From Octopus vulgaris (Eukaryota), in the NCBI GenBank assembly GCA_951406725.2, contig OX597826.1:32364001-32428000 (forward strand): a stretch of 64,000 nt of DNA, read 5' to 3'. Made by a program: the position numbers and the translations under genes. Positions 28,617-39,027 of this stretch are shown in pieces. Numbering within the stretch: position 1 is the stretch's first letter; the number at the start of each line of letters is the position of its first letter. The notes below the pieces were generated by a model. It had not been told where the DNA came from, did no database searches, and saw only the letters and a list, made by a program, of their open reading frames with translations.

Positions 28617-28696
28617 GTTAATCCAAACAAGAAAACACAGAAAAAAACATAGCAACGCGAGGACGTGGAACAATTAAAGTATTATTTGACGCTCAG
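28617..28696 (-). mobile_element. Terminal fragment of a (TA)n-adjacent element related to 38230-38430
   Basis: Begins directly after (TA)n. CAACGCGAGGACGTGGAACAATTAAAGTATTATTTGACGCTCAG resembles the pre-hammerhead segments at 38010-38050 and 38270-38320. Confidence 0.5.
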
Positions 28697-28860
28697 CACA
28701 GGAGTGGTTGTGTGGTAAGTAGCTTGCTTACCAACCACATGGTTCTGGGTTCAGTCCCACTGTGAGGCACCTTGGGCAAGTGTCTGCTACTGTAGCCCTG
28801 GGGGCTGACCAAAGCCTTGTGAGTGGATTTGGTAGATGGAAACTGGAAGAAGCCTGTCGG

Positions 28861-28914
<54 letters not shown>

Positions 28915-29217
28915 ATCTAGGGGGAGAATTCACAAAAAACAAAAGACGAAGATAGGTGGTGTAGACAACAAACATATATATATATATATATCTATGTATG
29001 TGTGTGTATTTGTTTGTGCATCTGTGTTTATCCACCCAACATCGTTTGACAACCAATGCTGGAGTGTTTACACCCCCGTAACTTTGTGGTTCAGCAAAAG
29101 AGACTGATAGAATAAGTACTAGGCTTACAAAGGATAAGCTCTGGGGGCGATTTGCTCAACTAAAGGCGATGCTCCAGCATGGCCACAGTCAGATAGCTGA
29201 AACAAGTAAAAGAGTAA
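28697..29217 (+). mobile_element. Family B SINE, full length, with a ~55 bp insert (28919-28972) in its (TA)n
   Basis: Full head-to-tail match to 5293-5696. The insert GGGGAGAATTCACAAAAAACAAAAGACGAAGATAGGTGGTGTA matches 37973-38020. Confidence 0.9.
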
Positions 29218-37165: not shown

Positions 37166-37779
37166 TCTAGGTTGGCGTTTCTATTTTAAATGTCCGGCCT
37201 CCTAGTTCATCAAATAAAATAGACACAAAATAAATGCTGATGACAAAAGTACCCATCAAACAGCAACAAATTTTGGTAGACTGGTGGAGGAGGAACACTT
37301 AGTTTTGAGCTTTCTGCAGCAGCGGATAAATTCTTGAAGCTTAACTGATGATCATAAAAAGGGGCATCATAAAATTATATTTGGATAAAATTATTGCCTC
37401 GTAAGAATATTATGTTTAGTTATTTATATATTTGTATAAATGGTCAACCCTATCAAAAAGGAAAAAAAAATGTGCATATATAAATGCCGTTTTGTTTTTG
37501 TATTCTTCTACGTAGGTTTGTGACCATACTGGAGCATTTCTCTTTGAAGGTGTGTTTTATCTTTAAGTTTGGATTGCATTGATCCTGGGACCTATTTTAA
37601 ACCTGGGACCTAGTCTATCGAGTCTCCATATGCTGAACTGTCAAGGTGTAAACAAGAGGTGTAAACAAACCTACACTGGTTGTCAGGAGATGGAGGAAAG
37701 ATAACATGAAGATACATACATGTACACACACAAGCATACATGTATACACACACACACACATACATATGTAGATGTGGAA

Positions 37780-38160
37780 CAGTTAATCCCTGCACAATTT
37801 TTTTGTCTCTATATATTTTTGTTCAATATTTTTCCTGTCTGTCAAAGAGGTTTGAAACATCAATGACTTTTCCATTCTTCCTGAGTGTCAAACTAATACA
37901 CCTGCTTGTCGTTCCTTCCCCTGTCTTTGTCTTTTGTTTTCTGTAAATTTGAACGATATATATATATATATAGGGAGAGTTTACAAAAAAAAACAAAAGA
38001 CGAAGACAGGTGGTGTACAAAACAAACAGATGTATTAGTATAACGCTCAGGAATAGAAAAAGTCTTTTACATTTTGAGCCTATGCTCTTCTACAGAAAGC
38101 GACACAGAAAAAACAAGGAGAGAAAATAAATGTGTGTAGTGGCTAATGATCTATCATGGT

Positions 38161-38163
<3 letters not shown>
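37780..38163. mobile_element. Tail-to-tail pair of short non-coding elements around (TA)n, each with a decayed hammerhead-like motif
   Basis: + copy TTCCTGAGTGTCAAACTAATACACCTG...CCTGTCTTTGTCTTTTGTTTTCTGTAAA versus - copy TTCCTGAGCGTTATACTAATACATCTG...CCTGTCTTCGTCTTTTGTTTTTTTTTGTAAA. The - copy motif is CTGTAGA-A-GAGC-ATAG-GCTC-AAAATGT. Confidence 0.75.
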
Positions 38164-38209
<46 letters not shown>

Positions 38210-38729
38210 TATGTATGTAAGCATATATGCATGTATTGTAAAAACAATGAACAAAATTAAAAAGAAAAAACCCAACAGAGGAAGGACAAGTTTTAATAAA
38301 TATTGGATTGTTTAGTGCTTAAAAAAAAAAGAATTGAAAGTGCCTCAATGATTCGGACACTTGTCTTTCATCAGAAGAAAACAATCAACGAAAAAAGCAA
38401 AGTGCAAAAAAAGAAGAGCTGTTGAGAAGAGAGAAAGGGAGAGAGAGAGAGAGAGAGAGAAAGAAGTGGCAGGAGGAAATATGTATGTATTTATACATAT
38501 GTGACAAACTTTCACACAGTTTCTATTGGCCAAATTCACTGGGGCAGCAATAGTTGACCTGGAGCTAGACTAGAAGTCACTAGCACACAGTGGGATTGAA
38601 TCCAAAACCATGTGGTTGTGAAACAAGACTGATCTGTAAAACACACACACACATATGTGTATGTATGTATATATATATGTATATGAATATATACATATAT
38701 ATGCATGTATGTATAAATATATAAAAGAG

Positions 38730-39027
38730 CATCATTTGAGCATAGTCGGTGCCAGTGTTGCCTGACTGGTTCCCATGCCAGTGGCACATAAAATGCACCA
38801 TTCGAGCATGATTGATGCCAGTGCTGCCTGACTGGCTTCTGTGCTGGTGGCACATAAAAAATCACCCACTACATTCTCAGAGTGGTTGGTATTGGGAAGA
38901 GCATCCAGCTGTAGAAACTTTGCCAGATCAGACTGGAGCCTGGTGCAGCCTCCTGGCTTGCCAGTCCTCAGTGAAACCATCCAACCCATGTCAGCAAGGA
39001 AAGTGGACATTAAACGATGAGGATGAT
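38730..39027 (+). mobile_element. Family C element with two ~65-bp internal tandem units
   Basis: GCCAGTG(T/C)TGCCTGACTGG...GTGGCACATAAAA repeated, then the RTE-type tail. Confidence 0.85.

Follow-up and report, generated by a model that had tools for sequence, protein, structure and literature searches.

Hammerhead-bearing short repeats beside TA tracts of Octopus vulgaris are probably 5'-truncated pLTR ends of Neptune-type Penelope-like elements

Short elements of the window and their families

The window, a stretch of 64,000 nucleotides from Octopus vulgaris (contig OX597826.1, positions 32,364,001 to 32,428,000), contains three short elements that border (TA)n tracts, and two end fragments. 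All five were located where the first-pass annotation had placed them, and the motifs it quoted were present in the sequence. The features were assigned as follows.

28617..28697, minus strand: 3' fragment of f4, a fourth sister family whose full copies carry a U4C core; its 5' side abuts another repeat
28921..28975, minus strand: 55-nt 3' fragment of the f2 kind, flanked by TA tracts
37772..37954, plus strand: e1, probable 5'-truncated pLTR end of the Penelope-like element (PLE) family f1 (older; 88% to the family model), a family joined to a PLE ORF remnant in locus L190
37835..37865, plus strand: decayed minimal hammerhead of e1; the family core is A6U, and the e1 copy also has G8A plus a stem II/loop deletion
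37955..37972, no strand: (TA)n tract common to e1 and e2, which lie tail-to-tail
37973..38164, minus strand: e2, 192-nt probable pLTR end of the young Neptune-type family f2 (96% to the model); its 5' end is the A of AGTC, the main f2 edge
38064..38099, minus strand: minimal hammerhead of e2; the family core is A6U, and the e2 copy has G12A and C15.2U by CpG decay
38164..38234, no strand: partly decayed (TA)n tract, from the 5' end of e2 to the 3' end of e3
38235..about 38430, minus strand: e3, old copy of family f3 with the canonical CUGAUGA core, assigned by its similar layout
38343..38378, minus strand: decayed minimal hammerhead of e3

The three elements had been described as related. All of them are real, but they belong to three different sister families, f1, f2 and f3 for e1, e2 and e3, respectively; e1 and e2 showed 77.5% identity over 80 nt, and e3 gave practically no direct match to either. 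The end fragments at 28617 and 28919, described as being of the same type, are likewise both present but are of f4 and f2 type, respectively. With the two suggested CpG changes undone, e2 agrees with the f2 majority at both positions: of 87 copies, 64 have G12 and 65 have C15.2. Rfam scans of the window returned no hammerhead, the matches being microsatellite-driven miRNA models only, and no PLE ORF was found within the 64-kb window. The repeats at 28698-28860 and 38520-38640, beside the fragments, gave the impression of being SINE-like, and the former adjoins the 5' side of the f4 fragment. A 66-nt unit present twice at 38721-38866 (77% identity between the two) belongs to another repeat.

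We searched the assembly (2.8 Gb, 227 contigs) with each element. With e2 this yielded 3925 first-look candidates. The 40 best had 94-96% identity and define f2; e1 led to the older family f1 (matches at 78-94%) and e3 to the older family f3 (70-83%). For f4, one 29-nt word alone had 983 exact matches. A blind sample of 800 kb, chosen at fixed positions regardless of content, contained 15 copies of f2 with scores over 90 bits, leaving aside one weak match of 21 bits, and 12 copies of f4. Scaled from this sample, the genome was estimated to carry about 52,000 copies of f2 (95% range 29,000-87,000) and about 42,000 of f4. The two families represent an estimated 100,000 short inserts, which could wrongly be annotated as SINEs or retrozymes. 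The suggested targeting of TA repeats was borne out for f1, f2 and f4, the families covered by the tally: TATATA lay directly 3' of the end in 16 of 31 f1, 61 of 77 f2 and 76 of 85 f4 copies (the last counted with a slightly different pattern), as compared to 3.3% of random positions. A literature search, with Repbase and Dfam lying outside it, found no paper on families f1-f4, on the A6U hammerhead core or on the start-site edge described below.

Hammerhead fold and core variants

Family majorities fold as a minimal type I hammerhead of the kind described in PMC4209133 (papers are cited by PMC number, from the portions available). The motif is ordered as a 4-bp helix I, the core, one extra A, a 4-bp helix II, GAAA, a palindromic CG, U and the cleavage base, with no helix III stem. 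A descriptor of the minimal hammerhead gave 9 matches in 864 kb and none in each of five shuffles. Over 32 copies taken from four families (10, 10, 10 and 2), 89% of cells were paired, as compared to 52% or less with slid partners. Four of the eight stem pairs change on both sides, a count that is not above shuffles (488/500) and stems from just a few events between families. The hammerhead-like motif reported earlier is indeed of type I, though minimal rather than canonical and with an A6U (f1, f2) or U4C (f4) core. At position 6, U prevails in f2 (84 of 87 copies) and f1 (50 of 56) and A in f3 (42 of 46), and 52 of 91 f4 copies share one core with U4C. The exact f3 core was found only twice in the core search, and RF00163 had six matches genome-wide, none with the f1-f4 cores.

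Metazoan PLE pLTRs carry minimal type I hammerheads (PMC4209133) that agree with these in the 4-bp helix I, the additional base ahead of helix II, G10.1-C11.1 and the palindromic C15.2-G16.2. They also occur mostly as solo copies, which that paper attributes to truncated PLEs. Helix II is 4 bp in f1-f4, as compared to 7-8 bp in its schistosome examples. The fixed changes A6U (f1, f2) and U4C (f4) also set these families apart, its main text, in the portion available, naming only U3-A8.

The copies in the window have core changes of their own, namely G8A and a deletion in e1, G12A in e2, and changes at 10.1 and 15.1 in e3. G8 and G12 are catalytic positions of the hammerhead. Owing to these further changes, the three window hammerheads are unlikely to cut. 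The A6U core is predicted to cleave weakly, and the changed core base in the most abundant families would likely weaken self-cutting. In PMC3088659, as available, a natural A6C variant had low activity and U4C had reduced activity in vitro. When a two-unit piece of the f2 array in L140, described below, was folded, the pairing of stem II was about 0.5 and that of stem I about 0. Canonical, A6U and U4C cores are all represented among these sister families, and their hammerheads could be compared in one assay.

Other features were noted around the hammerheads. At 38089-38135 (minus strand) of the window and in sister families, a pyrimidine tract leads into the hammerhead, and in f2 the A6U change makes an acceptor-like CTGTAG within the core; splicing there would delete half the ribozyme, and the contig runs listed no joint of this kind. 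Loci L032, L033 and L036 have Rfam hammerhead matches with a stem II region of about 70 nt, and an inverted copy lies beside L032. Another minimal hammerhead family, with a U3-A8 core and a CGCG palindrome, was seen in L264, L269 and L272; it had four matches in the 800-kb sample, two of them 362 nt apart in L269.

Junction with protein-coding Penelope-like elements

Copies of f2 have a fixed 3' end and a variable upstream reach, with nested extension from 330 bp to more than 3 kb. Six f2 loci extended to 10 kb led into RT and GIY-YIG coding sequence. The full unit consists of a pLTR, TATATATAT, a 5' UTR, an ORF (RT, CxxxxCxxC linker, GIY-YIG) and a 3' UTR ending in the same pLTR, followed by (TA)n. 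The complete unit in L128 is flanked by (TA)n on both sides and has a 346-nt pLTR at its head, and L347 is a second complete unit of the same layout. The f1 end runs continuously into a decayed PLE C-terminus among the ORF remnants of L190, and the f4 end is followed in L385 by a related UTR start and the N-terminal part of a PLE ORF. The proposed link to PLEs was thereby confirmed for f1, f2 and f4. Upstream of f3, 60 loci taken with 1.5-kb flanks and nine loci extended to 7-8 kb yielded no ORF; a weak match in L220 was rejected as an f3 ORF, being downstream and on the other strand. The short repeats are very probably pLTR ends of PLEs, and f3 likely consists of such ends too.

The f2 ORF matched RVT_1 (E 1.7e-5) and GIY-YIG (E 0.009) of Pfam, both matches failing the Pfam cut-offs, and its copies are frameshifted. 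It had 910 homologous proteins at E<=1e-20 and was 49% identical over 590 aa to one protein, P0014, which by eye differs from Neptune1_Ap at only 3 of about 90 residues in the supplementary alignment of PMC8557442. A CxxxxCxxC linker precedes GIY-YIG, as in Neptune and Nematis. The grouping of f2 with Neptune is tentative, going by way of the by-eye match of P0014 to Neptune1_Ap.

Neptune-clade endonuclease-bearing (EN+) PLEs, as described in PMC8557442, resemble f2 in having RT followed by a C-terminal GIY-YIG, a CX2-5CxxC linker and pLTRs, as well as heavy 5' truncation, inverted and tandem insertions and a microsatellite bias. In f2, pLTRs in partial tandem with 5' truncation were seen in L128, L347 and L346, along with inverted copy pairs. 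A retained intron near the 5' end is a further trait of EN+ PLEs, and acceptor-like sequences were noticed here. The portion of that paper available does not mention a sharp 5' edge for Neptune elements. The Octopus rows available from its supplement are Naiad and Hydra families, among them Hydra-1_Obim with a hammerhead, and the f1-f4 Neptune types are absent from these rows. Octopus Penelope families are also reported in PMC13282606, the main text of which, as available, mentions neither hammerheads nor Neptune. The endonuclease-bearing PLE class itself is already known; f1, f2 and f4, and likely f3, add Neptune-type families to it. A second PLE family (RT, CxxxxCxxC, GIY-YIG; minus strand) lies at 3200-4960 of L128 with an inverted copy of its 3' UTR, and abuts f2 across a TA tract. 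Its UTR has, by eye, an apparent minimal hammerhead with a U3-A8 core and a CCGG palindrome.

The 5' edge and the origin of the short copies

Among 30 f2 copies picked by their last 90 nt, e2 included, 25 were 155-201 nt long (11 at 189-194), five were longer and none was under 155 nt; in the blind set, 13 of 15 were 139-194 nt, five of them 190-194. Together, 16 of the 45 5' ends fell within one span of 6 nt and 7 were scattered over the entire upstream length. The predicted cleavage site lies at -94 and no copy (0/45) started there; in f2, the ends of copies are not determined by hammerhead cleavage. Resolved to single bases, the edge falls on the A of AGTC, within TCAGTC or CTAGTC, blurred over about 10-20 nt by microhomology. 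The initiator consensus is TCAKTY, which these sequences resemble. An untemplated G preceded AGTC in four of the six f2 loci that start exactly at that A (p 0.011, post hoc), as copying of a cap would give. Depth dropped 6- to 80-fold just 5' of AGTC in all four runs, weak evidence as it is of contigs and as subfamily differences may contribute. Ends of f1 clustered at the matching place in a sample biased to long matches, and 48 of 91 position-ordered f4 copies (two rows being one duplicated locus) begin within a single 23-nt interval, some 110 nt ahead of the cleavage site. In f1, f2 and f4 alike, the edge recurs just before CATG. The spot where most copies begin is likely the element's own transcription start, to judge from these sequence features.

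Longer copies were examined in 30 loci retrieved with 5' UTR (L303-L332). An optional 30-40-bp tail is a trait of EN+ PLEs; most copies here stop at the pLTR, and in five of the 30 loci the end lies within the UTR, at +162-177. Eighteen were ORF-less mini-units of the form pLTR-UTR-pLTR, in which the UTR runs to +228-300 and then meets a truncated pLTR, so that the two pLTRs lie about 270 nt of UTR apart; their junctions all differ, and the position of the UTR ends suggests a preferred template-jump site. Four continued into the ORF region, and the upstream pLTR was 195 nt or less in 18 of 21 UTR-bearing copies. In L140 (G000:C23:44072535-44075624), seven f2 units lie head-to-tail with TA runs of varying length between them, and four of the seven start GG-AGTC with an untemplated GG. 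It was the one array among the loci scanned for arrays, and none of the 15 blind f2 copies was in tandem. The array may stem from one event or from later duplication, and its hammerheads may lie close enough to dimerise if transcribed.

Taken as a whole, the data are best read as 5'-truncated pLTR ends of EN+ Neptune-type PLEs lying in TA repeats (f1, f2, f4 and likely f3), the short copies likely arising from internal priming and run-off at the RNA 5' end; we put the probability of this reading at about 0.8. The particular route would be as follows, and we give it roughly even chances. Transcription would start inside the pLTR at about -194, at the initiator-like TCAGTC or CTAGTC. The endonuclease would nick (TA)n, and the nicked end would pair with UAUAUAUAU directly after the upstream pLTR. 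RT would then copy about 190 nt back across the hammerhead to the RNA 5' end, and the cDNA would be linked to the target, in many cases through TA/CA microhomology; this would yield the solo copies that dominate. The rarer long copies would come from priming at the downstream pLTR, and the mini-units and occasional arrays from template jumps.

Parts of this route have precedents in the available portions of published work. The Penelope promoter lies inside the pLTR (PMC2377424), and a tie between the linker and microsatellite bias has been put forward as a hypothesis (PMC8557442). For the PAc/Poseidon element of the green anole (PMC11167929), internal RT initiation near the pLTR-ORF junction and AT-rich targets are reported, which f2 would share, and hammerhead cleavage was not needed, mutants having no effect on insertion in vitro. 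Against the UA-priming step, the initiation sites in PMC11167929 are not homologous to the target and lie inside the ORF, whereas f2 3' ends fall in a UA run able to pair with (TA)n, and the f2 ORF begins about 800 nt downstream. More tentatively, and at somewhat less than even odds, the copies of about 190-210 nt may be full-length cDNAs that reach from an internal UA priming site back to the pLTR transcription start, in which case both sites of a Neptune element would be recorded by tens of thousands of insertions; the A6U and U4C families, which kept the stems and changed the core, would then suggest a hammerhead retained as a fold or a tuned-down cutter and not as a processing enzyme. The copying route of PLEs and the reason for their hammerheads are open questions (PMC8557442, PMC11167929, as available). 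Families f1-f4 offer abundant young material, in which the fixed 5' edge points to a start site and the UA run to TA-repeat priming; it is the fixed start and the core variants that deserve to be followed up.

The edge could instead be an RT pause, a processivity limit or a protein barrier on full-length RNA, sharpened by (TA)n microhomology and involving no transcription start. Many junctions do use TA, AT or CA microhomology, no untemplated G was found at the f4 edge in 91 copies, and 5 of 30 f2 and 14 of 91 f4 copies run past the edge. We consider a pause rather unlikely, given the sharpness of the f2 edge (16/45 against 7/45), its recurrence before CATG in three families and the extra G in four of six f2 loci. 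It is also conceivable, if a shade less probable still, that the short copies, once truncations, are now their own masters, with an internal promoter and transcripts that read into (TA)n and are copied in trans by PLE protein like a PLE-dependent SINE, which would work like the retrozyme idea without circles. Short copies do predominate (13/15 in the blind set), still include the presumed start site and have (TA)n behind them, and the seven-unit array is in keeping with such masters. We compared 44 short and 32 long f2 copies over their last 192 nt, different queries having been used to collect each. The two consensus sequences are identical apart from a T-run, and both upstream subfamily variants occur in short as well as in ORF-linked copies. 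On the f2 tree, the labels were mixed yet clustered, with 13 label changes as compared to 24.6 in shuffles, and no bootstrap tree (0%) had a single change. Query bias may explain the clustering, which leaves room for short-copy masters; no separate lineage of short f2 copies was found, the consensus being shared and the short copies not forming one clade.

Preferring truncated PLE ends, we regard as highly improbable the earlier proposal of an independent non-autonomous family of non-LTR retrozymes spreading by self-cleaved circular RNA monomers. Like metazoan non-LTR retrozymes (PMC7229834), the families have a type I hammerhead, here with covarying stems, a size within 150-450 bp, low GC and a proposed dependence on PLEs; the L140 array of units of about 200 nt and the paired pLTRs of 18 of 30 UTR-bearing loci also recall them. 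Retrozymes, in the text available, have canonical hammerheads, tandem repeats and expressed circles, whereas f1-f4 have minimal hammerheads, with altered cores in f1, f2 and f4, and are mostly solo, and f1, f2 and f4 lack non-coding independence, being parts (the 3' ends) of autonomous ORF-bearing PLEs, with one consensus for short and long f2 copies. Moreover, (TA)n separates the units, which begin some 100 nt ahead of the cleavage site and in f2 never at it (0/45), mini-unit junctions all differ, and stem I hardly pairs in the folded L140 dimer. Starts at the cleavage site were seen in f4, in 4 of 20 copies (0-6 nt after the site) and in 5 of 91 in a second sample; the difference of the latter from f2 had p 0.17, and TA microhomology sits at the f4 site. 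With this microhomology as a confounder, the f4 copies of L394, L402, L442, L445 and L453, which begin at the predicted cleavage site, are a possible trace of cleavage in vivo.
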